DNA of 64,000 nucleotides from an uncultured Phascolarctobacterium sp. (GCA_947630795.1 CANRJC010000011.1:11161-75160); one strand, 5' to 3'; shown: positions 7,509 through 64,000, numbered from the stretch's first letter. Numbers and translations are program-made. The notes: generated from the sequence alone by a model not told the origin.

Positions 7509-7621
7509 TCTGAAACGAACGAACGGCCTCTGCTTTTTCTCCCGATGTTTTGCCAACGGAAGAGAGGGCAGAGGAGAGGCTTTTTCTCTGTCTCCTGACA
7601 AAAAGGAGTGAGATCACAAGT

Positions 7622-7807
7622 ATGAAAGAATCGGATATCGTAAAATTAAAGAGAGATTTTCAGGGGTTAAAGGTCGGAACAGAGGGTACGATAGTGCTTG
7701 AATATGACGGCTCTGCGTTTGAAGTAGAATTTTTTGATAAAAACGGAGATACTATAGCTGTCGTTACGACACCATCCGATGTTATCGAGGCAGTACTTGG
7801 ATTCTAA
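7622..7807 (+). CDS. small DUF4926-like protein
   Basis: 61 aa starting at the internal ATG (MKESDIVKLKRDFQGLKVGTEGTIVLEYDGSAFEVEFFDKNGDTIAVVT). The pattern matches my recollection of the DUF4926 family. Local G+C is visibly lower than in the flanks. Confidence 0.55.
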   Translation: MKESDIVKLKRDFQGLKVGTEGTIVLEYDGSAFEVEFFDKNGDTIAVVTTPSDVIEAVLGF

Positions 7808-7899
7808 GGCATAAGGTTTTATGAAGGTCGAACATAGATCGGCTTTGAAGAAGAAGTACTGCCCATCTTTTTATCGGCACGTCGGAGGGAGAGAGAAGA

Positions 7900-7943
7900 T
7901 AGTTAAGGTAGCGGTGGCTAAGGTGGAGCAGTATTGGGACTGA
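7900..7943 (+). pseudogene. 3'-terminal remnant of an Rpn-family (PD-(D/E)XK) gene
   Basis: ...VAVAKVEQYWD-stop parallels the end of the intact Rpn gene (AAAKVEQYWN-stop at 35927). The similarity continues through the terminator and heptamer array (7911-8021 vs 35895-36002). No upstream body or start codon is present. Confidence 0.4.
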
Positions 7944-7969
7944 AAATTTCATCAAGGCTGTAATGAAAA

Positions 7970-7997
7970 GAAGGGACGATCAGGCGTCCCTTCTTTT
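7970..7997 (+). terminator. intrinsic terminator
   Basis: Hairpin AAGGGACG-loop-CGTCCCTT followed by CTTTT. A near-identical hairpin follows the Rpn gene at about 35953-35980. Confidence 0.6.
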
Positions 7998-8000
7998 AGT

Positions 8001-8021
8001 GTGGAGTTTGGAGTGAGGAGT
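8001..8021 (+). repeat. heptamer array NNGGAGT x3
   Basis: GTGGAGT TTGGAGT GAGGAGT lies directly after the terminator. It belongs to the same family as the arrays at 28302, 34439, 35982 and 36195. Confidence 0.8.
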
Positions 8022-8217
8022 CGGGCGAGGGCAAACAGGCCGAGGTCAAGGACGGCTCTTCTTTTGAAAATAAAAAACATTTTCGCTCCGCAAAGTAATT
8101 AAACAGGCGGTGAGAAAAAAGCAGGAAAACGGAGCAGGAACAGCGAATTTGTCAAGGTAATGTGTCTAGGTGTAAATATTTGAGCCACAGCTCTTAATAG
8201 TTAAAGGAGGAAAGTTT

Positions 8218-10281
8218 ATGAAGGATTATACCGGCGATAAGATCCGCAACGTGGCCATCGTGGGCCACGGCGGAGCAGGCACCACGTCCGTGACCGAGGC
8301 TCTGCTCTATAGGTCCGGAGCCATCAGCAGAATGTGCAAGGTAGAAGACGGCGCCACCACCACTGACTACGAGCCGGAAGAGATCAAACGCAAAGTTTCC
8401 GTCAACGCCACTCTCGCTCCTGTAGAGTGGAGAGATTGCAAGATCAATTTTATCGACACTCCCGGCTTCGCCGACTTCGTGGCCGAAGTGAAAGGCGCTT
8501 TCAGAGCCGCCGACGTGGCATTGATCGTGGTCTCCGCCACCGGCGGCGTGCAGGTAGGCACGGAGCAGTGCTGGAAGCTGGCTGACGAGGCTCATCTGCC
8601 CAAGATCATCTTCGTGAACAAAATGGACAGAGAGAACGCCCATTTCGACCAAGTGCTGGAAAATCTGCGCCATAAATTCGGCAAGCACGTGCTGCCTCTG
8701 CAGCTGCCCTTGGGGAAGGAAGCCAATTTCGCCGGCATCATCGATCTTTATAAGATGAAGGCTTACAGGGCCAACGGCAACGGTTCCGACGAGATAGAGA
8801 TCCCCGACGAATATAAGGCTGCGGCCGAAGCCGCTCACGAGCAGATGGTGGAAGCCGCCGTAGAAGCCGACGACGATTGCATGATGCGCTATCTGGAAGG
8901 GGAAGAGGTGACCGACGAAGAGATCATGAAATGCCTGGTGAAAGGCATCCGTCAGGCCAACTTCTATCCCGTGCTCTGCGGCAGCGCCGTGAAGAACATC
9001 GGCTTGGGCCGGGTGATGAGCGCTATCATCGACTACACCTATCCCGCCGTGCTCAGCGATTTCACCGTCACCAACAAACTTACCGGCGAAGAAGAGCTCC
9101 ACGATGCCAATGCGCCTATGTCCGCTTTGGTCTTCAAGACCACTTCCGACCCCTTCGTAGGCCGGCTCAGCTTCTTCAGAGTGTTCAGCGGCACCATCGA
9201 GAGCGACAGCGTGGTTTATAATTCCCGCCGTGAGCAGGAAGAGAGGATCAGCAACATCTTCACCATGCGGGGCAAAACTCAGCTGCCCATGAAGAGAGCG
9301 GTGGCCGGCGACATCGGCGTCGTTGCCAAACTGCAATACACTTCCACCGGCGACACTTTGTGCACCAAGGCCAACCCCGTGGAGTTCGCTCCCATCGCCT
9401 TCCCGCTGCCCATGTACACCCGGGCCATTTCCGCCAAGAAGAAGGGCGACGAAGACAAGATCATGACCGCCCTCACCCGCTTGATGGACGAAGACCCCAC
9501 CATCATTGTCACCAAGAACCCCATCACCAAAGAATCTTTGGTATCCGGCATGGGCGATCAGCACATCGAGATTATCATGGAGAGGATGCAGAGGAAGTTC
9601 GGCGTGGAGGCCGAGCTGAAGGCCCCCATGGTGGAATACAAAGAGACCATCAGAGGCACTGCCGAAGTGGAAGGCAAGCATAAGAAACAATCCGGCGGCC
9701 ACGGCCAGTACGGCCACGTAGTGATCCGCATGGAGCCTCTGCCTCCGGGAGGCGGCTTCGAATTCGTGGATAAGATCTTCGGCGGCGCCGTGCCTCGTCA
9801 ATACATCCCCGCCGTAGAAAAAGGCATGATAGAATCGATGCAGAAGGGGATTTTGGCCGGCTATCCCGTAGTGGATATCCGCATCACTTTGCTGGACGGC
9901 TCCTATCACAGCGTCGATTCTTCGGAAATGGCCTTCAAGACCGCTTCCAACATCGCCTTCAAAAAAGCCATGGAGCAGTGCAAGCCGGTGCTTTTGGAGC
10001 CCATCTACAACCTCAGCGTCACCTGCGCCGACAGCATGATGGGCGACGTTATCGGCGACCTCAACTCCAAGCGGGGCCGCATCTTGGGCATGCAGCCGGT
10101 GGAAGAGGGCCTGAGCTTAGTGAGCGCTCAGGTGCCCTACGCCGAGATCACAGAATATGCGGTAGACCTTCGGGCCATCACCCAAGGCCAGGGCACTTTC
10201 GAGATGAAATTCGATCATTACGAAGACGTGCCTGCCAAACTGGCCGAGAAGATCATCGCCGACCGCAAGCAGCAACAGTAA
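8218..10281 (+). CDS. elongation factor G family paralogue with degenerate GTPase motifs
   Basis: 687 aa with EF-G domain order. G3 DTPG, G4 NKMD and G5 GSA are present, but the P-loop reads GHGGAGTTS (no Lys) and the DTPGH histidine is replaced (DTPGFADF). A strong RBS AAAGGAGG lies upstream. Confidence 0.9.
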   Translation: MKDYTGDKIRNVAIVGHGGAGTTSVTEALLYRSGAISRMCKVEDGATTTDYEPEEIKRKVSVNATLAPVEWRDCKINFIDTPGFADFVAEVKGAFRAADVALIVVSATGGVQVGTEQCWKLADEAHLPKIIFVNKMDRENAHFDQVLENLRHKFGKHVLPLQLPLGKEANFAGIIDLYKMKAYRANGNGSDEIEIPDEYKAAAEAAHEQMVEAAVEADDDCMMRYLEGEEVTDEEIMKCLVKGIRQANFYPVLCGSAVKNIGLGRVMSAIIDYTYPAVLSDFTVTNKLTGEEELHDANAPMSALVFKTTSDPFVGRLSFFRVFSGTIESDSVVYNSRREQEERISNIFTMRGKTQLPMKRAVAGDIGVVAKLQYTSTGDTLCTKANPVEFAPIAFPLPMYTRAISAKKKGDEDKIMTALTRLMDEDPTIIVTKNPITKESLVSGMGDQHIEIIMERMQRKFGVEAELKAPMVEYKETIRGTAEVEGKHKKQSGGHGQYGHVVIRMEPLPPGGGFEFVDKIFGGAVPRQYIPAVEKGMIESMQKGILAGYPVVDIRITLLDGSYHSVDSSEMAFKTASNIAFKKAMEQCKPVLLEPIYNLSVTCADSMMGDVIGDLNSKRGRILGMQPVEEGLSLVSAQVPYAEITEYAVDLRAITQGQGTFEMKFDHYEDVPAKLAEKIIADRKQQQ

Positions 10282-10313
10282 CGAGAGGGCAGCGAGCGGG
10301 CCGCTCCTGCCTT

Positions 10314-10345
10314 GCCCCCGGCCTGCGCCGCCGGGGGCTTTCTCA
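10314..10345 (+). terminator. intrinsic terminator after the EF-G paralogue
   Basis: GCCCCCGG-loop-CCGGGGGC followed by a T-rich tail. Confidence 0.5.
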
Positions 10346-10467
10346 TTGAGGACCGGGGCTTTTTCTTAAGAGAAGGCTTTGATTTCACGGAAAATTTTCC
10401 CAAGGGCCTTTGCAAAATTGTATAATGAGACGGTGGACAGCTACCGTTCACGATAGGAGGTAACATT

Positions 10468-52005: not shown

Positions 52006-52587
52006 ATGGCTATCCTCACCGAAAAAGACGTAATGGCATTGTTGGAAGAGACTCAGGCGGTGCTGCACGGGCATTTTCTGCTGACCAGCGGCCTGCACAG
52101 CCCCATGTACGTAGAAAAGTTCAACGTGCTGCAGCACCCCAAATACACAGAGCGCCTTTGCCGAGAGATCGCCCGCCGTTATGAGGACGCAGGCGTGGAA
52201 TTGGTGATAGGCCCCATGACCGGGGGCATCCTGCTGGCCCACGAAGTGGGCAAGGCTTTGGGCACCCGGGCCATCTTCACCGAGCGGGAGAACGGCAAGA
52301 TGACTTTGAAGCGGGGCTTTCAGATCCCGGAGGGCACCAAGGTGCTGGTGGTGGAAGACATCACCACTACCGGCGGCAGCATCAAAGAGGTGATCGACGT
52401 GGTGAGAGAGCACGGCGGCGAGGTGATAGGCGTGGGGCTTTTGGTGGACCGCAGCGGCGGCAAGGTAAATTTGGGCGTGCGCACGGAGGCTTTGCTGCAT
52501 TTGAACGTAGAGACGTTCAAGCCGGAGAGCTGCCCGCTGTGCGCCCAGGGCGTGCCTTTCACCAAGAGGGGACGCACGGGCAAATAA
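52006..52587 (+). CDS. pyrE: orotate phosphoribosyltransferase
   Basis: GHFLLTSGLHS. PRPP-binding loop VLVVEDITTTGGS. Confidence 0.92.
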   Translation: MAILTEKDVMALLEETQAVLHGHFLLTSGLHSPMYVEKFNVLQHPKYTERLCREIARRYEDAGVELVIGPMTGGILLAHEVGKALGTRAIFTERENGKMTLKRGFQIPEGTKVLVVEDITTTGGSIKEVIDVVREHGGEVIGVGLLVDRSGGKVNLGVRTEALLHLNVETFKPESCPLCAQGVPFTKRGRTGK

Positions 52588-52614: not shown

Positions 52615-52680
52615 AGAGCCCCAAGGGGCTCTTTTCGTTTGAGGGGGGAGAATCTATTTTAAACGTGTGCATTTCGAGAC
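52615..52680 (+). repeat. direct repeat DR-L, which includes the pyrE intrinsic terminator
   Basis: AGAGCCCCAAGGGGCTCTTTTCGTTTGAGGGGGGAGAATCTATTTTAAACGTGTGCATTTCGAGAC. The terminator hairpin is AGAGCCCC-AA-GGGGCTCT plus TTTT. It is repeated at 53823-53886 with a few mismatches. Confidence 0.9.
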
Positions 52681-52848
52681 GGGGAAAAAGGGGAAGCGCA
52701 ATTTGTTTTAGAGAGACGGTTATGCTATAATTGTTTTAAAGAGAGATAACGGATCAACGAAAAAGAAGCAAACAGCAGGGAAAATATGATCCCGAATACC
52801 GCAGTTACGATCGAGCGGCAAGTGCAGAGACGAAGGAGAAATGTGAAA

Positions 52849-53724
52849 ATGGCACGAAAGAAAAACAAACTTGAACTCGAATATGTCGAGCGGCTCATTG
52901 AACCGGTTTTTCTCGTGATTAAATGTCTCGGCGGCTCGGCAACTAATGCCGAGATCAGGGATGAAATAATCGAAACGCTCCGGCTTTCGGATGAAGTCGT
53001 AGACGAGCCCCATGTCGGAAAAGCAGCGCAGACGGAATTGGAATATCAATTGGCATGGGCGAGAACATATTTAAAAAATTACGGCGCTATAATTAACACA
53101 GAGCGAGGAGTGTGGGTTATTACTCCTGCTTTTGCAGACACCGTGGCCGTTGACGGGAAAGAGGTCATTAAGACTTTCTTGGAGAAAACCGGCAAATCAG
53201 GCGGTGAAAACGGTACGACACAGGATGACGATCCGTCGAACGACGGGGTAGATCCGCCGGAAGAACTGGAACCGTGGAGAATACAGATCGCAGAAATATT
53301 GCATAGCATGGATCCTTTTGCCTTCGAGCGTCTTTCACAGTTGCTGTTGAGAGAATGCGGTTTTTCGCAGGTAACGGTAACAAAAAAGACAGGCGACGGC
53401 GGGATCGACGGCAGGGGCAAACTTCTGATCAACGGGATATTCAGCTTCAATGTGGCCTTTCAGTGCAAACGGTTCAAGGGGAGCGTAGGCGCTGTGGAGA
53501 TAAGAAATTTCAGAGGATCGTTGACCACGGACAGGGAAAAAGGTATCTTTATCACCACCGGCTCTTTTACGAAAGCTGCCAGAGATGAAGCATCGATTGC
53601 CGGAAAGCAACAGATCGATCTGATCGACGGCGAGGAGTTCATAAATAAGCTGATAGAATATCGGATCGGCGTGAAGGAAAAGGCGGTCTTCGAGGTCGAT
53701 AAAGAGTTTTTCGATAAGGTCTAG
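52849..53724 (+). CDS. mrr: Mrr-type restriction endonuclease (Mrr_N winged helix + Mrr_cat)
   Basis: The internal ATG after AGGAGA gives MARKKNKLELEY. The C-terminal PD-(D/E)XK core reads FERLSQLLLRECGF ... GDGGIDGRG ... VAFQCKRF ... GIFITTGSFTKAA. Confidence 0.85.
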   Translation: MARKKNKLELEYVERLIEPVFLVIKCLGGSATNAEIRDEIIETLRLSDEVVDEPHVGKAAQTELEYQLAWARTYLKNYGAIINTERGVWVITPAFADTVAVDGKEVIKTFLEKTGKSGGENGTTQDDDPSNDGVDPPEELEPWRIQIAEILHSMDPFAFERLSQLLLRECGFSQVTVTKKTGDGGIDGRGKLLINGIFSFNVAFQCKRFKGSVGAVEIRNFRGSLTTDREKGIFITTGSFTKAARDEASIAGKQQIDLIDGEEFINKLIEYRIGVKEKAVFEVDKEFFDKV

Positions 53725-53822: not shown

Positions 53823-53886
53823 AGGAGCCCCAAGGGGCTCTTTTCGTTTGGGGGGAATCTGTTTTAAACGTGTGCATTTGGAGGCG
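53823..53886 (+). repeat. direct repeat DR-R (copy of the pyrE terminator region)
   Basis: AGGAGCCCCAAGGGGCTCTTTTCGTTTGGGGGGAATCTGTTTTAAACGTGTGCATTTGGAGGC. Same orientation as DR-L, bracketing the ~1.1-kb mrr cassette. Confidence 0.9.
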
Positions 53887-53941
53887 GTTAAAAAGAAAGC
53901 TCATTAGTCGCCCGGCAGGCGACTTTTTTGTGCGACGGGTT

Positions 53942-54006
53942 TGGTATAATGAGGGGGAGAGGGGGAGAGCACGCTCTATTAAAAATTCTTGCGAAAATTT
54001 TCGCAA
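53942..54006 (+). promoter_or_regulatory. extended -10 promoter followed by an 18-bp perfect palindrome (operator-like)
   Basis: TGGTATAAT at 53942-53950. TTGCGAAAATTTTCGCAA at 53989-54006 is a perfect inverted repeat. It lies at the entry to the AT-rich island. Confidence 0.4.
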
Positions 54007-54447
54007 AGTGTTTTTAGAATGACGGATGTTGTCCAAGTGGTTTGATAAAATGAAAAAAGAGGATACTGTTGTAAGGCGTACTTGTTGATGTATAACGGAT
54101 TATAGTGAAAATGGTATTGAAAACGCCTGTGGATTCTGGTAATCTTTTTGATTATGTGCTATGATAAATCACGGAATTTATTGATATTTTTGTACTTTAC
54201 TATCAGAACCACGAGTAAGCTCATCAATAAAGAAAAGTTGCATTTTCTATTCGGCTGTGTATTTGCAAACACTTTAATTTCTACATTGATGCAGCAAGTG
54301 ACTCTGGAAAGAATTAAGCGTTATAGAATAGCTGTTTCTAATAATCTGTGAAGAATACAGTGCATTTGAGTTGGCGCTTCTGCCAAGTTATCAAAATAAG
54401 ACAATAGTTTACAAAAATGGGATATGAGATGATATGGAGGGTCAACT

Positions 54448-55968
54448 ATGGCGGGAGAAACTGTACAGGTAGGTAAATACACGCTGGAATCTCTTACAAC
54501 AGGTATGTACTCCGATCCCAAAATTGTCTATCGCGAATATATTCAAAACAGTGTAGATTCTCTAGAAAATGCTGTTGCCCTCGGTGTGATTGAAAAGTCA
54601 AGTATGCGTATAGACATCATCGTAAAAGCAGAGACCTCTTACATATGTATAAAAGACAACGGAATGGGTATTCCTTCTGCTGAGGCGCCTGAAACCTTGA
54701 TGAATGTCGGCAGTTCAAAAAAACGCAATTCCAACAATCGCGGTTTCCGCGGCATTGGTCGCCTTGGCGGGATGAGTTACTGCGATACCCTTGTGTTTAC
54801 GACATCTGCTGAGAAAGAGGCAGTTAAGACTGTTATCACCTTTGACTGTAAAAGACTTCGTAATTTACTTATTCCTGGTAAATACGAAGATATGAGTTTG
54901 TCTGAAGTATTGGAAGAAATTACGAAGGTTGATTTTCTTCCGGAAAAACCAGAGCTGCACTATTTGATCGTGGAAATGAAGGAGGTAAATGGTTTTTCAG
55001 ATTTACTCGACATTGATGCCGTAAAAAGTTATATATCGCAGGTAGCGCCACTCCCATACCAATTGCGTAGTTTTATTTATGCTCCTCAACTCAAAAAATA
55101 TCTGAGCAAGAATGGATATGTTGTTGAGGAGTTTCCAATTTTTCTTGGTGAGGATGAATTAAATCTGGCGCCAGTGTACAAACCGAACAAAAGTAGATTC
55201 AAATCCGACAGAGCAAAGCGAACAACCGATGAAATCACAAGCATGTCATACTTCGATGTAATAATCGATGGTGAATTATACGCACTGGGATGGTATGGTA
55301 ATTGTGGATGGCTCGGGACCTTGTCTGATAAGGAGTTGTCCGGCATCAGAGTAAGGAAAGGAAATATCCTTATCGGTGACAACAAAACGATGAATATAAT
55401 TTTTAAAGAAGCTCGTTTCAATGGGTGGACACAGGGCGAAATATTCATCGTTACTGATAAACTTGTTCCAAACGCTCGCAGAGACGACTTTGAACAGAAT
55501 GATGCTTACTATGATCTCATTAACGCTTTAAGTAATGGAGTGAGCTTAGAAATTTCCAGAGCTATTCGTGAAGCCTCGTTTACAAGAAATAATCCTAACG
55601 CGAAGGCATTGAGGGAGATTGAGAAGGTGATTGCAGAGGCTTCCAATGCTGTTTCGGAAGGATTTAATTCGAGCATTGATAAAGAAACACTCTTAAAATC
55701 TTTGACTGAAAGTGCTATTTCGTTATCCGAATTAAGAGTGAACGATGATTTTTCACAAAAGAAAAAAGAACTTGAAGAAAAGATCGAAGCGGCTATCAAA
55801 GAAGTTTCAGAAAGCAAAAACTTCAAAATTAACCATATTAATTCCAGTATAGATAAAAAGAGTAAGCAAGTTTTAAGAGTAGTTAGTAACATCCTTTCAA
55901 AGAAACTTGCCAAGTCCCTTGTTGATGAGATTATTGCAGAAATTGTTTCAGAATTGAACAGAAAGTAG
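54448..55968 (+). CDS. GHKL-superfamily ATPase (Hsp90/MORC-like, HATPase_c_3 type)
   Basis: Bergerat-fold motifs: N-box YREYIQNSVDSLENA, G1 IKDNGMGIP, G2 GFRGIGRLGGMSY. Coiled-coil-like Lys/Glu-rich C-terminus. GGAGGG RBS. Confidence 0.85.
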   Translation: MAGETVQVGKYTLESLTTGMYSDPKIVYREYIQNSVDSLENAVALGVIEKSSMRIDIIVKAETSYICIKDNGMGIPSAEAPETLMNVGSSKKRNSNNRGFRGIGRLGGMSYCDTLVFTTSAEKEAVKTVITFDCKRLRNLLIPGKYEDMSLSEVLEEITKVDFLPEKPELHYLIVEMKEVNGFSDLLDIDAVKSYISQVAPLPYQLRSFIYAPQLKKYLSKNGYVVEEFPIFLGEDELNLAPVYKPNKSRFKSDRAKRTTDEITSMSYFDVIIDGELYALGWYGNCGWLGTLSDKELSGIRVRKGNILIGDNKTMNIIFKEARFNGWTQGEIFIVTDKLVPNARRDDFEQNDAYYDLINALSNGVSLEISRAIREASFTRNNPNAKALREIEKVIAEASNAVSEGFNSSIDKETLLKSLTESAISLSELRVNDDFSQKKKELEEKIEAAIKEVSESKNFKINHINSSIDKKSKQVLRVVSNILSKKLAKSLVDEIIAEIVSELNRK

Positions 55969-55975
55969 GCTTACT

Positions 55976-57940
55976 ATGGAAGTACTACCATCTGAGTATC
56001 AGAATATTGAGCTCTCTAGATATGAGAAAATATTCGTGCGCTACGCCATTTCTAGCGATCAGTATGGCTTTCTTTTATTGAAAGTAAATCCCACTATGAT
56101 CGAAAATGAGAGTATGAATGTTGTGATTACTTCTAGAGGGGTTGTGTTTTTTAAGTTTTTGGAGAAAATCTCGGATGCAACCCTATTTGGAAGTGTAATG
56201 GAATCTTATAAATGCGTCTATTCTATGTCAGAAGAAATTATTGTCAAGAAACTTCTCAGCAATAAATCAATATCCGAGAATGGAACGGCTTTGAAGTTCC
56301 CAATCAATATCGTCCATGTTTTTCCGTGTCTCAAGCAAACAGATATTGAAAAGGTGAAGAATGATACTATTGCAGAATTTGTTGAAAAACATTGTTTGTT
56401 CGCAGAGAAGTTTTCTGAACTGCGTCAAGGATTTGCCGCCGTTTTAAATCACTTTTTGGATACTCCTATTATTACCATATCAGCTAATACAATGCAGATC
56501 TCCGATTTGAATGTAAATTCCATAATGCAGAGGATCGCTCCTGAATATGTTACTGTGCGAGTTGCTTGCATTGACTGTGCCAAAACAACACCTGGTGTAG
56601 ATAGTGAGCTTTTGGTTATAGATGAGAATGATGTTGTAGTTAAGGCTTTCCGCCTGGATAAGGAGCAAATCAACATTGTAAATAGAATCAGCAGGGATGA
56701 CCCAAATCAGCTGATACTGGCTTGTGCAGGATCCGGAAAAAGTGTATTGCTCATATCCAAATGTTTTAAGGCAGCGCAAATGAATCCTGACAAGAAGTTC
56801 CTAATCACATGTAAAAATGAAAATCTTCATTCACTTTATATTTGGTTTATTGACCGCGCCGGGCTTCATAATAAGAATGTTGAATGCATGACTTTTCATG
56901 CTCTTTGCAAGAAACTTCTTGAAAAGAACAAGTTTAGTGTAAAACCCAAAGATTTTGAAGGCTGGGTCAATTCGGCTATCGAAAAGCTAAATCAGGGTAA
57001 AATTACAGACAGATACTACGGTATCTTTATTGATGAGGTGCAGGCATTTGAACCCGAATGGTATAAGTTTTGTTTCAATCTCCTTGAAAACAAGGATACT
57101 AAAGATCATATATTTGTTATCTGTGGAGACAAAACGCAACGCTTGGACAAGCTCAAAAAGCATGGCCAAGCACCCTGGCAGGCTGGAGAAGGATATCCGA
57201 ATTACCGGGGTGGAAACAAAAACATACGCATAGAAAAGAATTACCGTAACTGTTATGAAATTAACGAATACATAAATCGGTATGTTTCTAACGTAAGACG
57301 ATATCTCTATGAAATACAAGATGATTATAAGATTGATCCCGATATGTTTTTGCGGGGGCAGGCTATCTTTCATGGGGAAGGAGTGCGATACATTCAGCTG
57401 ACTACAAAAAAAGTGGAATGTGAGATTGATAATATTATTCATTCTATCAAAGAAATACATGATATGAAAGAAATTCCATATGATGAAATTGCTGTGATAA
57501 TGTACCAAGGAAAGTTTCGAAAGAAAATTTCTGGCTGGTTGGACAAAAACTATTTTTTGCAGCAGAATTTAGAAAAAAGAATGGATGCTGAAAATATTCC
57601 GTACTGCCGCCTTTACTCTACTGAAGGGGCCTGGCAAGATCATTTTGGAGATACAGGCGGTGTTCGTATCATTAAATTTCAAACATCGCTAGGTTTGGAT
57701 TTTCGGGCAGCCATTATTTGCGGTCTTGTTACCTTGGGTGAGTATGAGCATATTAAGAATCCTGAATGGGAGTCTTTAAAAACTGATAAAGAAAAATATG
57801 AAAATACGATTACCGATATTCAACGTGCCATTCAAAACCTTTATGTGGCTTGCACAAGAGCTAAAGAGCTCCTATATATTATCGCTCCGGAAAGCGAAGA
57901 AGAATCCATCTTTATGAAGCTGCTCAAAGACTCAATTTAG
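55976..57940 (+). CDS. UvrD/Rep-family (SF1) helicase-like protein with a ~230-aa N-terminal domain of unknown, possibly degenerate NERD-like, type
   Basis: Walker A ILACAGSGKSVLL, motif II GIFIDEVQAF, motif III ICGDKTQRL, motif VI LYVACTRAKELLYI. 7-nt gap after the preceding gene. Confidence 0.85.
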   Translation: MEVLPSEYQNIELSRYEKIFVRYAISSDQYGFLLLKVNPTMIENESMNVVITSRGVVFFKFLEKISDATLFGSVMESYKCVYSMSEEIIVKKLLSNKSISENGTALKFPINIVHVFPCLKQTDIEKVKNDTIAEFVEKHCLFAEKFSELRQGFAAVLNHFLDTPIITISANTMQISDLNVNSIMQRIAPEYVTVRVACIDCAKTTPGVDSELLVIDENDVVVKAFRLDKEQINIVNRISRDDPNQLILACAGSGKSVLLISKCFKAAQMNPDKKFLITCKNENLHSLYIWFIDRAGLHNKNVECMTFHALCKKLLEKNKFSVKPKDFEGWVNSAIEKLNQGKITDRYYGIFIDEVQAFEPEWYKFCFNLLENKDTKDHIFVICGDKTQRLDKLKKHGQAPWQAGEGYPNYRGGNKNIRIEKNYRNCYEINEYINRYVSNVRRYLYEIQDDYKIDPDMFLRGQAIFHGEGVRYIQLTTKKVECEIDNIIHSIKEIHDMKEIPYDEIAVIMYQGKFRKKISGWLDKNYFLQQNLEKRMDAENIPYCRLYSTEGAWQDHFGDTGGVRIIKFQTSLGLDFRAAIICGLVTLGEYEHIKNPEWESLKTDKEKYENTITDIQRAIQNLYVACTRAKELLYIIAPESEEESIFMKLLKDSI

Positions 57941-57956
57941 TGAAAGGTAGGAAATT

Positions 57957-59270
57957 ATGAATCTGATTGAAAATAAAACGAAATTTAAGCATTCCGGTAG
58001 GCCAGGCTGGGGTGTCGGAACTTTCATAAAATCCGAGAATGACTATGTAACGATCAACTTTGAAAACGTAGGGCCTAAAAAATTCAGGAAAACAAGTATT
58101 AACGAAGAACTGAAGATCATAAAAGGAACCGATAATAGTACCGCAAATAAAAGTTTACAAAGTAGGCCAATAGACGGCTTGACGAACGCACAAAGCAGTT
58201 CGTTGATTCAATATGATGGGGAAGAAGGCAATGGTTTTGCCGGCAAAAATGTTATTGAAGCGTTTGAAGGTAACGACACAGTTTTATTTAATGAGACATA
58301 CATAATCATTGGAAAACATACGAAAGCGTTTAAATTACATGCTTTGTATGACTTGATAATTATGGGAGATGTGACTGTTCAAGAGTGCAAAGTAAACGGC
58401 TCATTAACAGTTCTGGGTGATGCTCGTATTAATAATCTGGACTGTCAAAATGGGTTTATTTGTAAAGGCGATTTGTATTCAGATAATATTTATGTTGGTG
58501 GGGATATGATCGTTGATTCTATCAACTGTGATGAGTTGCTCTGTGACGGAAATGTAGTTGTCAAAAAATCAGTAAACATTAACCGTAATGCAAAAATAGT
58601 AGAGACTATGATAGCATGCGAAGGAATAACGGGTGAAGGCAAGTTCTCCGCTCTCAATGCCATAGCAAACGAATATTTCGAATTTGATGGTGACTGCGAA
58701 GGAAAAATTGTAGAACTGGAAACGGATACTACAATCAGTAATACAGTTCCCGTTAAAGCTGTTTCTTTAGAGCCAATTGAAGAAATTATCAAATTAGCAA
58801 ACCAAAAACTCATCGAGGAGTACAAGAGATATCCTGAAATGGACGAAGAACAAATAATGGCACATTTAAGACATTTGAGCTTAATCGAGAGTGACGAATT
58901 AAAAACACTTCCTGTTGTGGAACAGATGTTTTCTTGTCTGGTAGAGATGTCTTATAAAAATAAAATTGGGACTATTGAAGAGTATTTGACAGTTCTTGAA
59001 GCAGAGAAAGTATTGCCAGCTGAAATATATTCTTATGAAACAATCGAGCACATAGGTAATAGCTACCTTCCTAAAGCGCAGAGTGAGGTTGAGAAATTAA
59101 GTTTTGAACCTACATCTATTCAGCAGTTCGCTAAGGTTCTTTTGCTGGCAGTAAAGCTTAAAGAAAGAGTATCCGATAATTGGGGAATCATTATGGAAAA
59201 ACTTTTCGAATCTATTGGGTTAAAATACGCAACTGTAAGTAAGATGATTGAAAGAAATAAGCCTATTTAG
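57957..59270 (+). CDS. hypothetical protein: N-terminal Tudor/SH3-like segment + bactofilin-like beta-helix repeats + helical C-terminus
   Basis: FKHSGRPGWGVGTFIKSENDYVTINFENVGPKKF resembles the HxxFGxGxV C-terminal domain of PcrA/UvrD (DUF3553-like). Residues ~150-230 show hexapeptide-like repeats (GDVTVQECKVNGSLTVLGDARINNLDCQNGFICKGDLYSDNIYVGGDMIVDS...). 16-nt gap from the helicase gene. Confidence 0.75.
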   Translation: MNLIENKTKFKHSGRPGWGVGTFIKSENDYVTINFENVGPKKFRKTSINEELKIIKGTDNSTANKSLQSRPIDGLTNAQSSSLIQYDGEEGNGFAGKNVIEAFEGNDTVLFNETYIIIGKHTKAFKLHALYDLIIMGDVTVQECKVNGSLTVLGDARINNLDCQNGFICKGDLYSDNIYVGGDMIVDSINCDELLCDGNVVVKKSVNINRNAKIVETMIACEGITGEGKFSALNAIANEYFEFDGDCEGKIVELETDTTISNTVPVKAVSLEPIEEIIKLANQKLIEEYKRYPEMDEEQIMAHLRHLSLIESDELKTLPVVEQMFSCLVEMSYKNKIGTIEEYLTVLEAEKVLPAEIYSYETIEHIGNSYLPKAQSEVEKLSFEPTSIQQFAKVLLLAVKLKERVSDNWGIIMEKLFESIGLKYATVSKMIERNKPI

Positions 59271-59365
59271 GCACAGAATAACAAATTTATAAGCTAAGAT
59301 CAGCATGGACATTATATGAGGAACAGCAATTAATCTAATTATTGCAAGAGCATCGGAGAAGGAAA

Positions 59366-62300
59366 ATGACCGTAAGCGAGGTAAATAGAATGCCTAACAT
59401 AAAAAGTATTGACCGTGAACTACTTGCTAATGCAATTTTGCAGGGTTTTAAAGGTAAAATAACAGGTGAAGGTACCGATGTAGTAATTGGGGAAAACCCA
59501 GAAAATAGATATTTCGTCGGAAAGCTCTTGCCCGTTAGTGATTCACAAAAATCCTCTTGGGGATCTGATTTTTTTATAGAATCTATAGGAACTGATTTTT
59601 ACATTGCTATAGAAGAAATAAAGACAGCACAGCTTACCATTTATCCAAAAGGGGACTTTTATTATCGTGCGTATCCTACTCTTGAACAGCAGCGTACTGC
59701 TATGCTCAAAAGAGCCAATGAACTGTTTGAAACAAGTTTTTCAAGCTTTGATGAGATTATTAAACGATATGAAGAGGATTATTCAGTATTATCTAAACTC
59801 AAAGAAAAACTCATTCCAATTTATAAGAAAGTGCAAATCAACCGTAGCGACTTTACGCTAACATTTAATTTGCATGAACTTCTGCGAGATAATCCACAGT
59901 TCGGTTTTGCAGGCGCAAATCACGCACAGAACATGCAATTTGCAGAATTTCTTGACAACCTCCAAAATTCGATTTGTGAGGATGAATACTGCTATACCAC
60001 GGAACTATTTGAAAAAACTACTGTAAAGGACTTGTTGACAGAACAAAATTATAAAAATTTTCTTAAAAGGAATGCCAAACAAGGCCCTCCTATACGTCAG
60101 AATTGGAATGTATATGTTGATTTGACCTTAAAACTCATTAAGGACAGAGACGAATATTTGATATCTGTTGCCCTTGTTAATGGATCTCAGGTTCAATCAA
60201 ACAGCGTTACTCATAAATCGAATAAAAAATCCAATGATAAGCCTACAATCGAGACACTTTTTAACTCCGGGATGGAAATCAAGCTCGATGGGGCTAATTT
60301 CTCTACTATTGACCTGGATTTCTTTGCTGAAGATTACAAATACAACAGCAGCCAGAAAGCTGTAGGAAATAATTGTTCCGTCATTTATGATGCGGACAAC
60401 AACTCGATTATAACAAACCATCTGCCTGTATTTATTCAAAAACGGTTGCTCACAAATGATGAGTTTGCTGTCTCGTTCCAATCATTGATCGATGACCCTG
60501 TTACAATTCTCAGGGACATCCATAATAATATGCTCGCTGAACACAAAAATTGGGAAAATATTCTTGAAGAAAAGAGACCAGTACTTTCGCCTGTTGGGAT
60601 TAAAAATATGCAGGAAGAAATTAACGAGTTTGCACGAGAAATCCGTCGCTTTGAGTTTGGTATTGAGATAATCAACGATTACCCAATCATTATGAAAAGC
60701 TTCAAAAATATGAACCAGACGTTCTTGAATACCTCCAAAAAATATAGTACTTGGAGATTGTTTCAGATTGTTTATATCGTTTCGCTCATACCAGATATAG
60801 CGGCATGTGATGGGACTGCGATTCTTGATGTTCACAAAAAACAGAGCACGCTTAACGAGGTTTCTCTTCTATACTTCCCTACAGGTGGCGGTAAGACTGA
60901 AGCTTTCCTTGGGGTTTTGGTTTTTAATCTGTTCTTTGATAGATACCGCGGAAAGGAATGCGGCGTAACATCAATCCTCAGATATCCATTAAGGCTTCTT
61001 TCTGTTCAGCAGGTACAGCGTTTGGCTAATGTTCTTGCTCAAGCTGAACTGATCAGGAGAAATGACAAAGCAATATTCAGAACTGAAGAATTTTCTCTTG
61101 GCTATTTTGTTGGTGATGCGAACACGCCTAACAAAATAGAAAAGAAAAATGTACTAAAGTATAGGAGAGCTTCACAAGAAGTCCTAGATGAGGAGCGAAT
61201 TATTGATGTTTGCCCTTTTTGTGGCAAAAAGACAGTTCATTTGAAATTCGATGAAAACTCTTATCGTCTGATTCATTATTGTGACAATACGGAATGCAGG
61301 TCAAATGGCATTTTACCGATTTTTATGGTTGACCACGAAATCTACCGTTATTTACCTTCTGCCATTATAAGTACAGTTGATAAGCTTGCCATTTTGGGGA
61401 ATAACCCGAATTTTAGAAATATTTTTTCTGGAGCTACCCACAGATGCCCAAAGCATGGTTTTACGAACACTACAAAATGTATGGTAGATAGGGAGTTTTG
61501 CGATGTTGATATTGCCGATTTCGAAGAAGTTGAAATGTATGACCCAGCACCTACTTTGTTCATACAAGATGAGTTGCACTTGATTCGTGAAAGTCTGGGA
61601 ACGTACGCTTCTCATTATGAATCTTTTATTGATTACTATGTGAAAAATGTATCACCGTCACATCGACCTATCAAAATCATCGGTGCTACTGCAACAATTT
61701 CCTCTTACAAGACGCAGATTTCTCAGTTGTATAACAAGGATCCCATTCGCTTCCCCTGTGCTTCTCCAGATTTGAAACGAAATTTCTATTCATATATTGG
61801 GAATGATGATATTCAACGTTTAATTATAGGATACGCACCTTTCGGTAAAGCTATTATCAATTCTGTAGTCTACTCACTTAAATATATGAGAGAAGTTGTA
61901 TATGACTATGTGAAATGTCCTGAAAAGGTCTTGAATATCCCCGGTATAGGTATTGATTCTATTGATGAGGCATTGGAAATACTGAAAGACTACTGGATCT
62001 TCCTTGAATATAACAATATCAAGCGAGACGGGAATAATGTTGAAGGTGCTCTCGAAACACCTATTAATGTTGAGCTCCGCAAAGATGGAGTAACTCCTTT
62101 CAAAACAAGAAAAATGACCGGTGACGAAACCTTTCAGGACGTGCGTGAGGTTTTATCGAAGGTAGAAAACAATGAGGATGTGTTTAACGGTGTAAACCTT
62201 ATTGTTGCAACATCGATGATTTCTCATGGGGTCGATGCTGATCGATTTAACATAATGTTCTTCTATGGTATGCCTGGTAATACGGCTGAGTACATTCAGG

Positions 62301-62833
62301 CATACAGCAGAACCGGAAGAAAATATACAAGCATTGTTATCGATATAATGAGACCTTCCAGAGAAACAGATCAAAGCTATCTAAAAAACTTCGTAAACTT
62401 TCATGAGTTTAAAGATATTCTGGTCGAATCTGTTCCCATCAACCGTTGGGCAACGAAAGCCATAGATTGGACGTTGCCGGGTATCTTCACAGGTCTACTG
62501 CTGATGAAATATGACCCCCAATTACAATCAAGTTGCGGTTCGCAATTCTTTATGAACAACATTAAAAAGGCAATTTCTAATGGCTACTTGGATAAGGCAA
62601 CTGTTATCGAAGAATTAAAACTGGCTTATGGATGCACTGTTGCAGGACAAGTAAATGAGCTTGGAAACCAATACAAAGAAAAGATTGAAAGTTTCGTTGA
62701 GGATGTTTTTGCAAGAATCTCTGATAAGAACTGGGAAAAGGAAAATATCTTTTCTGGATTTGAACTTATGGGTTATCACATCATGAATAGTATGAGAGAT
62801 ACCGATACTCAATTGATTATCGAACTGGAATGA
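59366..62833 (+). CDS. large SF2 DExH helicase with zinc-ribbon inserts (DrmA-like architecture)
   Basis: About 500 aa of unassigned N-terminal region, then Walker A YFPTGGGKTEAF, motif II FIQDELHLI, motif V/VI IVATSMISHGVDADR ... QAYSRTGR. Cys clusters CPFCGKK...YCDNTEC and HRCPKHG...KC lie inside the RecA1 region. The start could be ATG 59366 or ATG 59390 (GAGGT RBS). Confidence 0.85.
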   Translation: MTVSEVNRMPNIKSIDRELLANAILQGFKGKITGEGTDVVIGENPENRYFVGKLLPVSDSQKSSWGSDFFIESIGTDFYIAIEEIKTAQLTIYPKGDFYYRAYPTLEQQRTAMLKRANELFETSFSSFDEIIKRYEEDYSVLSKLKEKLIPIYKKVQINRSDFTLTFNLHELLRDNPQFGFAGANHAQNMQFAEFLDNLQNSICEDEYCYTTELFEKTTVKDLLTEQNYKNFLKRNAKQGPPIRQNWNVYVDLTLKLIKDRDEYLISVALVNGSQVQSNSVTHKSNKKSNDKPTIETLFNSGMEIKLDGANFSTIDLDFFAEDYKYNSSQKAVGNNCSVIYDADNNSIITNHLPVFIQKRLLTNDEFAVSFQSLIDDPVTILRDIHNNMLAEHKNWENILEEKRPVLSPVGIKNMQEEINEFAREIRRFEFGIEIINDYPIIMKSFKNMNQTFLNTSKKYSTWRLFQIVYIVSLIPDIAACDGTAILDVHKKQSTLNEVSLLYFPTGGGKTEAFLGVLVFNLFFDRYRGKECGVTSILRYPLRLLSVQQVQRLANVLAQAELIRRNDKAIFRTEEFSLGYFVGDANTPNKIEKKNVLKYRRASQEVLDEERIIDVCPFCGKKTVHLKFDENSYRLIHYCDNTECRSNGILPIFMVDHEIYRYLPSAIISTVDKLAILGNNPNFRNIFSGATHRCPKHGFTNTTKCMVDREFCDVDIADFEEVEMYDPAPTLFIQDELHLIRESLGTYASHYESFIDYYVKNVSPSHRPIKIIGATATISSYKTQISQLYNKDPIRFPCASPDLKRNFYSYIGNDDIQRLIIGYAPFGKAIINSVVYSLKYMREVVYDYVKCPEKVLNIPGIGIDSIDEALEILKDYWIFLEYNNIKRDGNNVEGALETPINVELRKDGVTPFKTRKMTGDETFQDVREVLSKVENNEDVFNGVNLIVATSMISHGVDADRFNIMFFYGMPGNTAEYIQAYSRTGRKYTSIVIDIMRPSRETDQSYLKNFVNFHEFKDILVESVPINRWATKAIDWTLPGIFTGLLLMKYDPQLQSSCGSQFFMNNIKKAISNGYLDKATVIEELKLAYGCTVAGQVNELGNQYKEKIESFVEDVFARISDKNWEKENIFSGFELMGYHIMNSMRDTDTQLIIELE

Positions 62834-62847
62834 GGGTGGTGAATAAT

Positions 62848-64000
62848 ATGAGTTCTAAACGGCAGATGAAAAGAGGAAAGAATCAGTCTTTGTACAAATA
62901 TCTTCCCGAAACTTGGATAGATTTTTCTGTTCGAGGCAAGGAAAGGAAACAATATATTGCTAAAGTTGTAAGATGGAACAGCGAAAAGCTAGACGAAATA
63001 AATGTCAAAAGACTTATTAGAACCGTTAATGAGTTAGTTCGCTCGTTTGAAAACCAATGCCAAACACATGGCGCTATTAAGCCAACTGTTGGTTTTGGGA
63101 CTGAACTTACTAAGGATAATTGTTATGTTCTTACCCCTAAAGCTTCTGACGAAGAAAGAGGTATTGTCGCTCAGATTAGCCCTTTGACTTTCTATTGTAA
63201 GAGCTGCCATAAGGTTTATCAGTTCAGTAGCGAGGAAGAATATCAAAAGCATAAATATTGTACTAATCCGGAATGCCATCAATCCGAGCTTGCTCAGTTC
63301 CGGCAGATATATTTCTGCAAGTGTGGATATGCAACAGACAGGCATAATCCACGTTGTCCAGAGCACGGATATCAATATGTAAAATGGGACGGAAACTATA
63401 ATTTTATTTGTTACAGATGTAACAAGACTATTCCCATGCAAGTGAAGTGCCCGATTTGTGGTGAAATATTGAGGCCTAAAGTTGCCCTTGATCCAGCTCA
63501 GTTTTTTGTGTTTAGTTTAAGTCTTATTGACTTAATCGACGAAAAATTGGAAAATTTTATTTCTGAAACCTCTTATGGGACATATATAACATTCGCATAC
63601 TGGCTTGAATTAATAAATAAAGAGGAGCTTGATGAAATTATAAGGAATGGAATTGTTTCTGATCCGGATATATATCAAAAAGAATATGACAGAATGTATA
63701 AGGAAATGCTTCCTCTTGGGGCGACTGTCGCAGCGCAGGCGGCAAAAATAGCTGCCGACAAAATATGCGGAAATAGATTTAATGACATCGTTAATGACCT
63801 AAGAACCAAGGTTTTTTCTACAAAAAGCGATATGTCCAGCATGGCTGAACGAATTCTGGAGTATGAAATGGTAACCAGGCTAGATGATGTATCTGATTTG
63901 GATTCTGCTATAAATGTCGCTCGTCTTTTAAATACAAACGCAAATCCGAAACAATACGCACAGATTGCAAAGCGCTTTGGCATTAATAGCGCCAGAGTTT
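62848..64000 (+). CDS. Cys-rich (multi zinc-ribbon) protein, 3' end outside the window; DUF1998/DrmB-like by position and cysteine pattern
   Basis: Not in the ORF track because it has no stop in the window. My own translation from ATG 62848 (RBS GAGGGTGG) stays open to nt 64000: MSSKRQMKRGKNQSLYKYLPETWIDF ... FYCKSCHKVY ... YCTNPECHQ ... FCKCGYATDRHNPRCPEHGY ... FICYRCNK ... KCPICGE ... It starts 14 nt after the helicase stop. Confidence 0.75.
   Translation, partial: MSSKRQMKRGKNQSLYKYLPETWIDFSVRGKERKQYIAKVVRWNSEKLDEINVKRLIRTVNELVRSFENQCQTHGAIKPTVGFGTELTKDNCYVLTPKASDEERGIVAQISPLTFYCKSCHKVYQFSSEEEYQKHKYCTNPECHQSELAQFRQIYFCKCGYATDRHNPRCPEHGYQYVKWDGNYNFICYRCNKTIPMQVKCPICGEILRPKVALDPAQFFVFSLSLIDLIDEKLENFISETSYGTYITFAYWLELINKEELDEIIRNGIVSDPDIYQKEYDRMYKEMLPLGATVAAQAAKIAADKICGNRFNDIVNDLRTKVFSTKSDMSSMAERILEYEMVTRLDDVSDLDSAINVARLLNTNANPKQYAQIAKRFGINSARV

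Follow-up and report, generated by a model that had tools for sequence, protein, structure and literature searches.

The DNA stretch analysed here (hereafter the window) comprises 64,000 nucleotides (nt) of an uncultured Phascolarctobacterium sp. (GCA_947630795.1, CANRJC010000011.1:11161-75160), and its 3' end, positions 54448-64000, is an AT-rich island of packed genes, named A to E, two of which encode DrmA and DrmB, the core of the DISARM defence system. The G+C content was 0.566 over positions 1-52000, 0.483 in an Mrr-type restriction gene lying upstream of the island and 0.374 over the island itself; followed along the window, it ran at 0.57-0.61 up to ~52.5 kb, at 0.48-0.53 across the Mrr gene and at 0.35-0.41 from 54 kb on. 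The abrupt switch to an AT-rich island claimed in the original prediction, which had been made from the sequence alone, was therefore borne out (G+C 0.57 to 0.37), and so was its gene count within the island: five intact, co-directional open reading frames (ORFs) on the plus strand, separated by 7, 16, 95 and 14 nt, whose translations contain all the motifs it had quoted (GSGKS, GGGKT, DELH and the GHKL N-box). The unit itself turned out to be larger than the five genes proposed. Four metagenome contigs encoding proteins identical to those of the window run past the window end, and from these contigs we read the full DrmB (624 aa) and three further genes, F, G and H, located beyond nt 64000. 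The junctions E-F and F-G measure 3 and 1 nt, and G and H overlap; thus, six of the seven junctions of the operon are overlaps or gaps of 1-16 nt between stop and start codon, the sole sizeable gap being the 95 nt between C and DrmA. A single operon of ~15.4 kb results, with the eight genes A-B-C-DrmA-DrmB-F-G-H, and the island represents its 5' two-thirds.

Gene D (59366-62833, plus strand, with an alternative TTG start at 59342) encodes a 1155-aa superfamily 2 (SF2) helicase of the YprA family that matched the PADLOC model for DrmA (PDLC02576) with E = 3.6e-174 over residues 21-1121, and the solved Serratia DrmA (PDB 7s9v_A) with E = 4.2e-55. Only marginal PADLOC matches were obtained to DpdJ (E = 6e-4) and DpdF (E = 5e-3). 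The protein carries GGGKT, DELH and pairs of CxxC, in agreement with the DExH helicase of ~1150 aa with zinc ribbons that had been described. Gene E starts at 62848 or 62830 on the plus strand and runs off the window (62830-64000), which holds the first ~390 of its 624-630 aa; several CxxC ribbons were found in this part, so the earlier description of a truncated multi-zinc-ribbon protein was also correct. E matched DrmB, the DUF1998-type, zinc-binding partner of DrmA, with PADLOC E values of 1.4e-10 for the window fragment and 1.5e-56 for the complete sequence (taken from the metagenome contig L002; locus numbers are ours), and with E = 3e-7 for the DrmB of the PDB (7s9v_B). No DUF1998 was called by Pfam in gene E. 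Judging by these sequence matches, D and E are to be assigned to DrmA and DrmB, and their scores, well under the NCBI cut-offs for DISARM proteins, point to divergent members of both families. The original claim that the cluster maps onto no named system consequently stands for the cluster as a whole and falls for these two genes; DISARM had been left out of its list of excluded systems. The helicase and the DUF1998 protein are encoded here by two separate genes, and DISARM is described as the sole branch in which this split is consistent, being sporadic in other lineages (Bell et al. 2025, bioRxiv 10.1101/2025.09.15.676423).

Gene A (54448-55968, plus strand, 506 aa) encodes a GHKL (Bergerat-fold) ATPase with a Pfam HATPase_c_3 match (E = 1.3e-11), and the 501-aa product of gene H, at the other end of the operon, is a second one (HATPase_c_3, E = 2.3e-12). 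Both proteins show the same motifs, which in A read EYIQNSVD (N-box, ExxxNxxD), DNGMGI (G1, DxGxG) and GFRGIGRLG (G2, GxxGxG). The NCBIfam matches of A were partial and N-terminal, to models of the HSP90 family, Topo VI-B and MutL; the GHKL part of the earlier MORC/Hsp90-like assignment was confirmed. A and H are 38-39% identical over nearly their full length and are therefore paralogues. In a simple neighbour-joining tree without bootstrap, the A-type GHKLs formed one clade nested within the family of GHKLs linked to radical S-adenosylmethionine (radical-SAM) genes, which suggests that A arose as a duplicate of an H-type GHKL; A-type proteins were seen in the eight-gene cassette only.

Gene B (55976-57940, plus strand, 654 aa) encodes a superfamily 1 (SF1) helicase of UvrD type with Pfam UvrD-helicase and UvrD_C matches, the GSGKS motif and, as predicted, an additional N-terminal domain of ~215 aa. 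This domain showed no detectable homology; the idea of a degenerate NERD domain was discarded after an hhalign comparison with the NERD profile of F gave a probability of 0.2. In PADLOC, B matched 'NERD+UvrD' (C3a187, E = 4.1e-22) through its helicase part only, besides weak matches to GajB, and B and F resemble each other in their helicase cores only. Gene F (554 aa) combines a NERD domain (Pfam, E = 1.3e-9) with an SF1 helicase and has a full-length match to the PADLOC NERD-helicase 'RTasNERD-Hel' (E = 2.8e-70). Its PD-(D/E)xK residues (D55/D60...E69-x-K71), together with the Walker A and B motifs, were invariant in the six sequences aligned, which makes F the obvious candidate for a nuclease, and we slightly favour its being the nuclease effector of the system. 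The original observation that no obvious nuclease effector is visible thus holds inside the window and not beyond it.

Gene C (57957-59270, plus strand, 437 aa) encodes a predicted Tudor-like beta-barrel (Pfam DUF3553, E = 4.7e-5) joined by a linker to a beta-helix and a helical domain. An AlphaFold2 model, with a predicted local distance difference test (pLDDT) value of 66, matched in Foldseek the C-terminal domain of UvrD (7egt_B; probability 1.0, target template modelling (TM) score 0.77) and the Tudor domains of PHF1, so that the Tudor-like N-terminus and beta-helix proposed before were recovered in the predicted structure. C is the fastest-evolving and most modular protein of the cassette, with 28-64% identity between cassette clades. 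Most of its relatives (541-549 aa; for example L006:1350-2975) bear a C-terminal tail of ~105 aa, for which only a non-significant helix-hairpin-helix-like match was obtained (Pol IV, E = 0.075). Other short variants of C exist, and in the L008-type clade it is the N-terminal Tudor-like domain that is missing instead.

The order A-B-C-DrmA-DrmB-F-G-H was strictly kept in more than 20 contigs, in which the identity of the radical-SAM protein encoded by gene G ranged from 46 to 100%. It was found in the loci L006/L007 and L008/L009 and in every long locus of a scan of species-representative genomes (L010-L020), whose hosts were Dysosmobacter, Gemmiger sp. An50 (L011, a complete cassette within NZ_NFID01000007.1, ~59.2-80.8 kb), Butyricicoccus, a member of the Clostridiaceae, and several metagenome-assembled genomes of Lachnospiraceae and Clostridia; it was also present in the environmental contig L023, where the radical-SAM protein is only 46% identical, and in 14 of the 80 metagenome loci recovered by a profile search with the radical-SAM family. 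All eight proteins co-vary between cassette clades, G being the best conserved (75-84% identity) and C the most variable. The conservation of the neighbourhood, which the original prediction had suggested checking, was thus confirmed, its order being kept across divergent copies and unrelated flanks. In every locus the G+C content of the cassette was 0.36-0.41, always under that of its flanks, and the flanks varied from locus to locus, including genes for a large serine recombinase, an IS91 transposase and a DNA polymerase of family A, WYL and LexA-like genes accompanied by imuB, or genes of an ordinary chromosomal kind. A low G+C content everywhere, combined with varied and often mobile-element-like flanks, is the signature of a mobile cargo cassette. 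Neither inside the cassette nor consistently beside it did we find a relaxase, replication-initiator or capsid gene, which speaks against its being part of a conjugative or phage replication module, the alternative that had been foreseen; as to a phage origin, a search of IMG/VR with N-terminal patterns yielded no relative of F. Taken together, horizontal acquisition of a tight multi-gene cluster of defence type, adjoining a type IV restriction gene, was supported.

Some individual copies deserve mention. A WYL-domain protein is encoded directly 3' of H in three of them (L006:13584-14576, L016:15250-16242 and L040), and WYL regulators often control defence systems; the contig with window-identical proteins ends 111 nt past H. 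In L001, a sibling contig of the window cassette, drmA is split into ORFs of 616 and 530 aa (6942-10371), which reflects a frameshift or else an error due to low coverage. The copy in L017 has decayed: C is absent, H is truncated, and after it comes a gene for a 716-aa protein carrying two HATPase domains.

On the host side, the insertion site is marked by pyrE (52006-52587, plus strand; NCBIfam pyrE_Therm, 193.9 bits, cut-off 150), with which the host operon carB-pyrK-pyrD-pyrF-pyrE ends, the ORFs 5' of it matching pyrF, pyrD, pyrK and carB. A first copy of the pyrE terminator region (52616-52690, plus strand) consists of the hairpin GAGCCCCAAGGGGCTC plus ~60 nt, belonging to the direct-repeat families D1 and D2, and it is followed by the gene for the Mrr-type (type IV, modification-dependent) restriction endonuclease (52786-53724, plus strand; Pfam Mrr_N 6.5e-15, Mrr_cat 3e-27; PADLOC mREase_IV 3.5e-26). 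The second copy of the terminator region, a direct repeat, lies at 53825-53895 (plus strand), after which the AT-rich cassette begins. The hairpin and its ~60 nt are thus duplicated on either side of the Mrr gene, the copies being 87-97% identical, and for this reason the Mrr gene looks like a separate single-gene cassette, an insertion of ~1.2 kb into the same pyrE-terminator hotspot. Between the second repeat and gene A extends an AT-rich non-coding leader (53896-54447, plus strand) with no ORF of at least 80 aa. A promoter of the cassette is presumed to lie here; promoter-like sites in the leader were not commoner than in shuffled sequence.

We then turned to gene G, whose 683-aa product is a radical-SAM protein with the motif CGNKCGFC (CxxxCxxC). 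The three cysteines of this motif were the only invariant ones across 42 diverse members of the G family. Pfam Radical_SAM was matched by 37 of these 42 proteins (best E = 1.1e-10), G itself scoring under the gathering threshold (6e-4), and 11 of the 42 matched the Pfam B12-binding domain PF02310 (best E = 1.6e-8). An AlphaFold2 model of G, derived from an alignment shallow in diversity (74-100% identity), gave as top Foldseek matches OxsB, MgmA and AprD4, all of them radical-SAM enzymes of B12 type; the catalytic half of the model is poor, hence these fold matches back the general architecture only. On that basis, G is predicted to comprise a B12-binding-type domain, a radical-SAM core and a private, all-helical C-terminal domain of ~260 aa, with B12 binding being putative. 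The family is large, with 1,194 clusters at 50% identity (E <= 1e-3). Phage records hold only distant, partial radical-SAM relatives (24-40% identity), among them KP836355.1 (Marinitoga camini virus 1) and MT836743.1, whose products share 30-40% identity with G over ~57% of its length; the latter record is a 'Bacteriophage sp.' contig of 8.9 kb, obtained from human faeces and lacking annotation.

The gene neighbourhoods of this family were compared in the 80 metagenome loci, the best of at least 582, in which the ORFs were labelled by a heuristic of our own. Fourteen loci had the DISARM-like context, and in 11 of the 12 that were testable a GHKL gene lay immediately downstream of the radical-SAM gene. 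The same arrangement was found in 3 of 13 testable loci with a Pbe context (17 loci), in 10 of 17 with a ParB/SNF2 context (21 loci) and in 10 of 24 whose context was other or too short (28 loci), which amounts to 34 of the 66 testable loci over all contexts. In the Pbe context (PADLOC, PbeA to E = 2.7e-225, PbeC E = 2.8e-95) the order was a large helix-turn-helix (Sigma70_r4) protein, PbeA, a small protein, PbeC, PbeD and, in last position, the radical-SAM gene; operons of this type occur in many environmental contigs (among them L053, L056, L057, L059-L061 and L074; for example L059:984-9775), and no description of such a variant was found in the searchable literature. In the ParB/SNF2 context the order was a ParB-like gene, a gene for a 139-aa protein, an SNF2 helicase, a second ParB-like gene and the radical-SAM gene. 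The commonest unlabelled neighbour of the radical-SAM gene encoded a DndB/DGQHR protein of 750-790 aa. Classical DNA methylases were not systematic neighbours, accounting for just 3 of the 103 neighbour-cluster representatives.

An order DGQHR protein, radical-SAM protein, 'ATP-binding protein' was found on the plasmids pR132505 of Rhizobium leguminosarum WSM1325 (L107, NC_012854.1, 3945-12197) and pNL1 of Novosphingobium aromaticivorans (L108, NC_002033.1, 7982-14480), both of which are conjugative. In the Rhizobium locus, the only one of the two that was scanned, the DGQHR gene matched models of DpdB/DndB type and the 'ATP-binding protein' gave the same GHKL-type N-terminal matches as A. The Rhizobium plasmid also has genes for a ParB-like protein and an SNF2-type helicase, and both plasmid triads adjoin a gene pair for a PIN-like and an ATP-binding protein. 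In the 791-aa protein P0203 a DGQHR domain (residues ~91-284) is fused to a radical-SAM core (313-637), which may provide a Rosetta-stone connection of one family with the other; P0149, P0195 and P0235 also look like fusions, but gene calling or assembly may have produced these as artefacts. Elsewhere, at L025:934-8263, a radical-SAM relative and its GHKL partner lie directly after a Menshen-like trio of GHKL, NsnB and NsnC genes (PADLOC NsnB, E = 9.8e-69), a further setting of defence-island type.

Pbe systems are reported to pair with phosphorothioate or methylase modification modules (PMC10853773), and the DrmAB, Pbe and DndB/DpdB-SNF2 sets all belong to systems normally paired with a DNA-modification module. 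Being found beside these three types, the radical-SAM gene, with or without its GHKL partner, repeatedly holds the slot of the modification module, and by this guilt by association we tentatively propose that G-H acts in DNA modification or self-marking. A broader and somewhat doubtful proposal is that radical-SAM genes, usually with their GHKL, constitute an unrecognised DNA-marking module, its mark being neither conventional methylation nor phosphorothioate, for at least three unrelated restriction-like machineries, namely the DISARM-like DrmAB, the Pbe/CxC-ABC and the ParB/DGQHR-SNF2 sets. The putative mark may be made by radical chemistry, perhaps a cobalamin-dependent C-alkylation. If real, such a module would be widespread, with ~1,200 clusters (50% identity) in gut Firmicutes, alphaproteobacterial plasmids and environmental metagenomes.

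What the sequences show is a conserved, mobile operon of eight genes whose catalytic motifs are intact and whose centre is formed by homologues of the DrmAB complex. With all these elements we consider the cassette very likely to be a DrmAB-centred defence system and its eight genes likely to act as one unit; the fuller reading, a mobile eight-gene anti-invader system related to DISARM, seems to us probable. In such a system DrmAB, by analogy with the Serratia DISARM, would load on invader DNA wherever single strands or 5' overhangs are exposed, sensing it and translocating along it at the expense of ATP, and F would degrade or nick DNA, supplying the step presumed for DrmC in canonical DISARM. 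G and H, in the slot of the missing methyltransferase, would most likely mark host DNA or otherwise license self by radical chemistry. A, B and C would form a second GHKL ATPase-helicase module, in which C could be a rapidly changing adaptor or sensor, its Tudor-like domain resembling the partner-binding C-terminal domain of UvrD.

It should be considered that a number of observations weigh against this reading. Every functional step of the mechanism is one that we infer. D and E stay under the curated NCBIfam cut-offs (372 bits versus 950 for DISARM_DrmAS and 91.5 versus 240 for DrmB_fam), and three features that define DISARM, the methylase, the PLD nuclease and DrmD/DrmE, are absent. The tail of C is missing in the window and drmA is split in the sibling contig L001, so that the function of the window copy is putative. 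The modification role of G is argued from gene neighbourhood alone, in a sample of metagenome loci that is biased towards the best matches, and the DISARM-like cassette, unlike the other radical-SAM contexts, has no DGQHR/ParB protein. G itself has no Pfam B12-binding match, and no sequence homologue of G was found in the PDB with either the single sequence or a 22-sequence profile (to E = 10); the catalytic half of its model has pLDDT values of 30-70, and the fold matches, at TM scores of 0.2-0.3 only, come from a model of low confidence in its N-terminal half. Finally, DrmAB is reported to discriminate by DNA structure and DrmC to be dispensable (Bravo et al. 2022, PMC9142583), hence a system of this kind could in principle do without a mark and without a nuclease.

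Another reading gives G a different role within a DrmAB-based defence system: with H, it might generate an antiviral small molecule or modified nucleotide, as viperins do, damage or modify invader DNA or protein, or work as a redox- or SAM-sensing regulator, and leave self-marking aside. Prokaryotic viperins are radical-SAM enzymes with an effector role in defence. A radical-SAM effector is also known in OpnA of Ophion (bioRxiv 10.1101/2025.09.30.679545), DrmAB can discriminate by DNA structure without a methylase (Bravo et al. 2022, PMC9142583), and a DGQHR/ParB partner for G is missing here. We nevertheless regard a non-marking role as rather unlikely, given that the G family occupies the position of the modification module in three architectures (beside DrmAB, beside Pbe and beside DndB/DpdB-like genes with SNF2), that a DGQHR-radical-SAM fusion exists, and that G is unrelated in sequence to the viperin-type enzymes of the PDB. 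A weak point in the same direction is that G evolves more slowly than any other gene of the cassette, slow evolution being a tendency of modification enzymes.

A different question is whether the eight genes are one system at all, and not two or three independent systems travelling together, namely A-B-C, a minimal DrmAB (with or without F) and G-H. The portability of the G-H pair, which occurs with Pbe, with ParB/SNF2/DGQHR genes and beside Menshen-like genes, would agree with that, and the paralogous pairs A/H and B/F suggest a modular assembly; the 95-nt gap between C and DrmA also fits a boundary between co-travelling modules. We nonetheless judge it improbable, as every sufficiently long locus has the eight genes in the same order despite radical-SAM identities of 46-100% and unrelated flanks, no locus was seen with A-B-C or with this DrmAB clade without the rest, the tightness of the other six junctions argues against independence, and the A-type GHKLs are confined to the eight-gene cassette. 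A role in DNA repair, or in the replication or maintenance of a mobile element, would have as its model the YprA/MrfA repair helicases with their UvrD-like partners. Such relatives of DrmA do act in repair (Bell et al. 2025, bioRxiv 10.1101/2025.09.15.676423), one domain of C is similar to the C-terminal domain by which UvrD binds UvrB, and imuB and LexA-like genes flank some of the copies. Against it stand the split of helicase and DUF1998 into two genes, consistent only in the DISARM branch (Bell et al. 2025), the strength of the DrmA match of D (E = 3.6e-174), the sporadic distribution of an element that is AT-rich in all its hosts and variously flanked, and the lack of relaxase, replication-initiator or capsid genes in it or consistently beside it and of relatives of F in IMG/VR, which together make this explanation very improbable.

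Read as a DISARM-related anti-invader system, the cassette indicates that a wholly different set of partners can be assembled around the DrmAB core, which widens what counts as DISARM-like. It is common in gut Clostridia (Lachnospiraceae and Oscillospiraceae) and passes between hosts that differ widely in G+C content, and current annotation misses it, as its DrmA and DrmB fall short of the NCBI cut-offs and PADLOC offers nothing beyond weak hits for four of its eight genes. It also raises the question of whether radical-SAM chemistry is used by bacteria to mark their own DNA in self/non-self discrimination; the presence of the module on plasmids of the cultured R. leguminosarum WSM1325 and N. 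aromaticivorans (pNL1) makes DNA mass spectrometry and knock-outs feasible. Should a marking role prove false, the cassette would still be a putative multi-ATPase defence machine with two GHKL clamps, of interest for the links between bacterial GHKL/MORC proteins and eukaryotic chromatin silencing.

In relation to known systems, the proteins were checked against Pfam and PADLOC, as had been advised, and no single named system took all the genes, only D and E being assigned, to DrmA and DrmB. In PADLOC v2, A, C, G and H had no matching models beyond weak hits, and no description of the eight-gene cassette was found in the searchable literature, subscription-only papers falling outside its scope. 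B and F have partial matches to GajB of Gabija (best E = 3.7e-11 and 1e-6), a system discarded for want of a match to GajA, its OLD-family ATPase-TOPRIM protein, in the cassette. The full-length 'RTasNERD-Hel' match likens F to the NERD-helicases of defence reverse transcriptases, and no reverse transcriptase was found in or next to the cassette in the loci examined. Druantia, TALON, Menshen, Mza and Tiamat were likewise rejected as labels, the matches being weak and to single domains or the defining partners being absent.

The resemblance to the Pbe/CxC-ABC-ATPase and Dnd/Dpd systems, which consist of a modification half and a restriction half (Xiong et al. 2019; PMC10853773), comes through the radical-SAM (with GHKL) module only: relatives of G, 38-48% identical to it, end PbeA-PbeB-PbeC-PbeD operons or adjoin DGQHR, ParB-like and SNF2 genes, whereas the cassette has no Pbe, Dnd, Dpd, DGQHR or SNF2 gene. 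No radical-SAM partner is described in those two papers. At the level of the enzyme, G shares with OxsB, MgmA/QCMT and AprD4 a putative N-terminal Rossmann-like domain followed by a CxxxCxxC radical-SAM core, and differs from them in having its own helical C-terminal domain and no sequence similarity to solved structures.

Among systems built on YprA-family helicases outside canonical DISARM, Dpd and Druantia (Bell et al. 2025, bioRxiv 10.1101/2025.09.15.676423), TALON is alike in combining such a helicase with a NERD nuclease and differs by its TPR-CSD and TBP genes, absent here. ARMADA, which combines a fused YprA helicase with a BrxHII/RapA-like helicase and a PglX-like methylase, was ruled out, as no BrxH or PglX match was found, the helicase and DUF1998 are split, and the best models for D are those of DrmA. 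BRIGADE has deazaguanine synthesis genes, and Dpd/BRIGADE was ruled out on the absence of Dpd (DpdA/B/C) and Que genes from the cassette, D having only marginal matches to DpdJ and DpdF. In the text of Bell et al. 2025 and the supplements consulted, radical SAM, GHKL, MORC and HATPase are not mentioned.

DISARM itself remains the closest relative. A typical DISARM operon, as summarised in Bravo et al. 2022 (PMC9142583), encodes DrmA and DrmB together with a DNA methyltransferase and DrmC, a phospholipase D (PLD) nuclease, and contains auxiliary genes besides. As in DISARM classes 1 and 2 (Ofir et al. 2018; 7S9V/7S9W), DrmA and DrmB are here two adjacent genes, homologous to the Serratia pair, within a large multi-gene operon on mobile DNA adjoining restriction genes. 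None of the eight proteins has a methyltransferase domain or a PADLOC DrmM match (DrmMI, N6-adenine; DrmMII, C5-cytosine), nor, in the loci examined, was a methyltransferase seen among those flanking genes that had been scanned or bore a Pfam annotation; the earlier statement that the window contains none could thus be extended to the whole cassette, and PLD nucleases are absent as well. No PLD/HKD domain or PADLOC DrmC match was found in the cassette, which has the NERD nuclease-helicase F instead, and neither DrmD (the SNF2 helicase of class 1) nor DrmE (class 2) was matched in PADLOC by A, B, C, F, G or H. Lacking a methyltransferase, a PLD nuclease, DrmD and DrmE, the cassette is therefore not a canonical DISARM. 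Many uncharacterised DISARM-like classes exist in the YprA family (Bell et al. 2025), and the present one is a DISARM-like class with a new set of partners, in which DrmA and DrmB are accompanied by the GHKL ATPases A and H, the UvrD-like helicase B, the Tudor/beta-helix protein C, the NERD-SF1 helicase F and the radical-SAM enzyme G.

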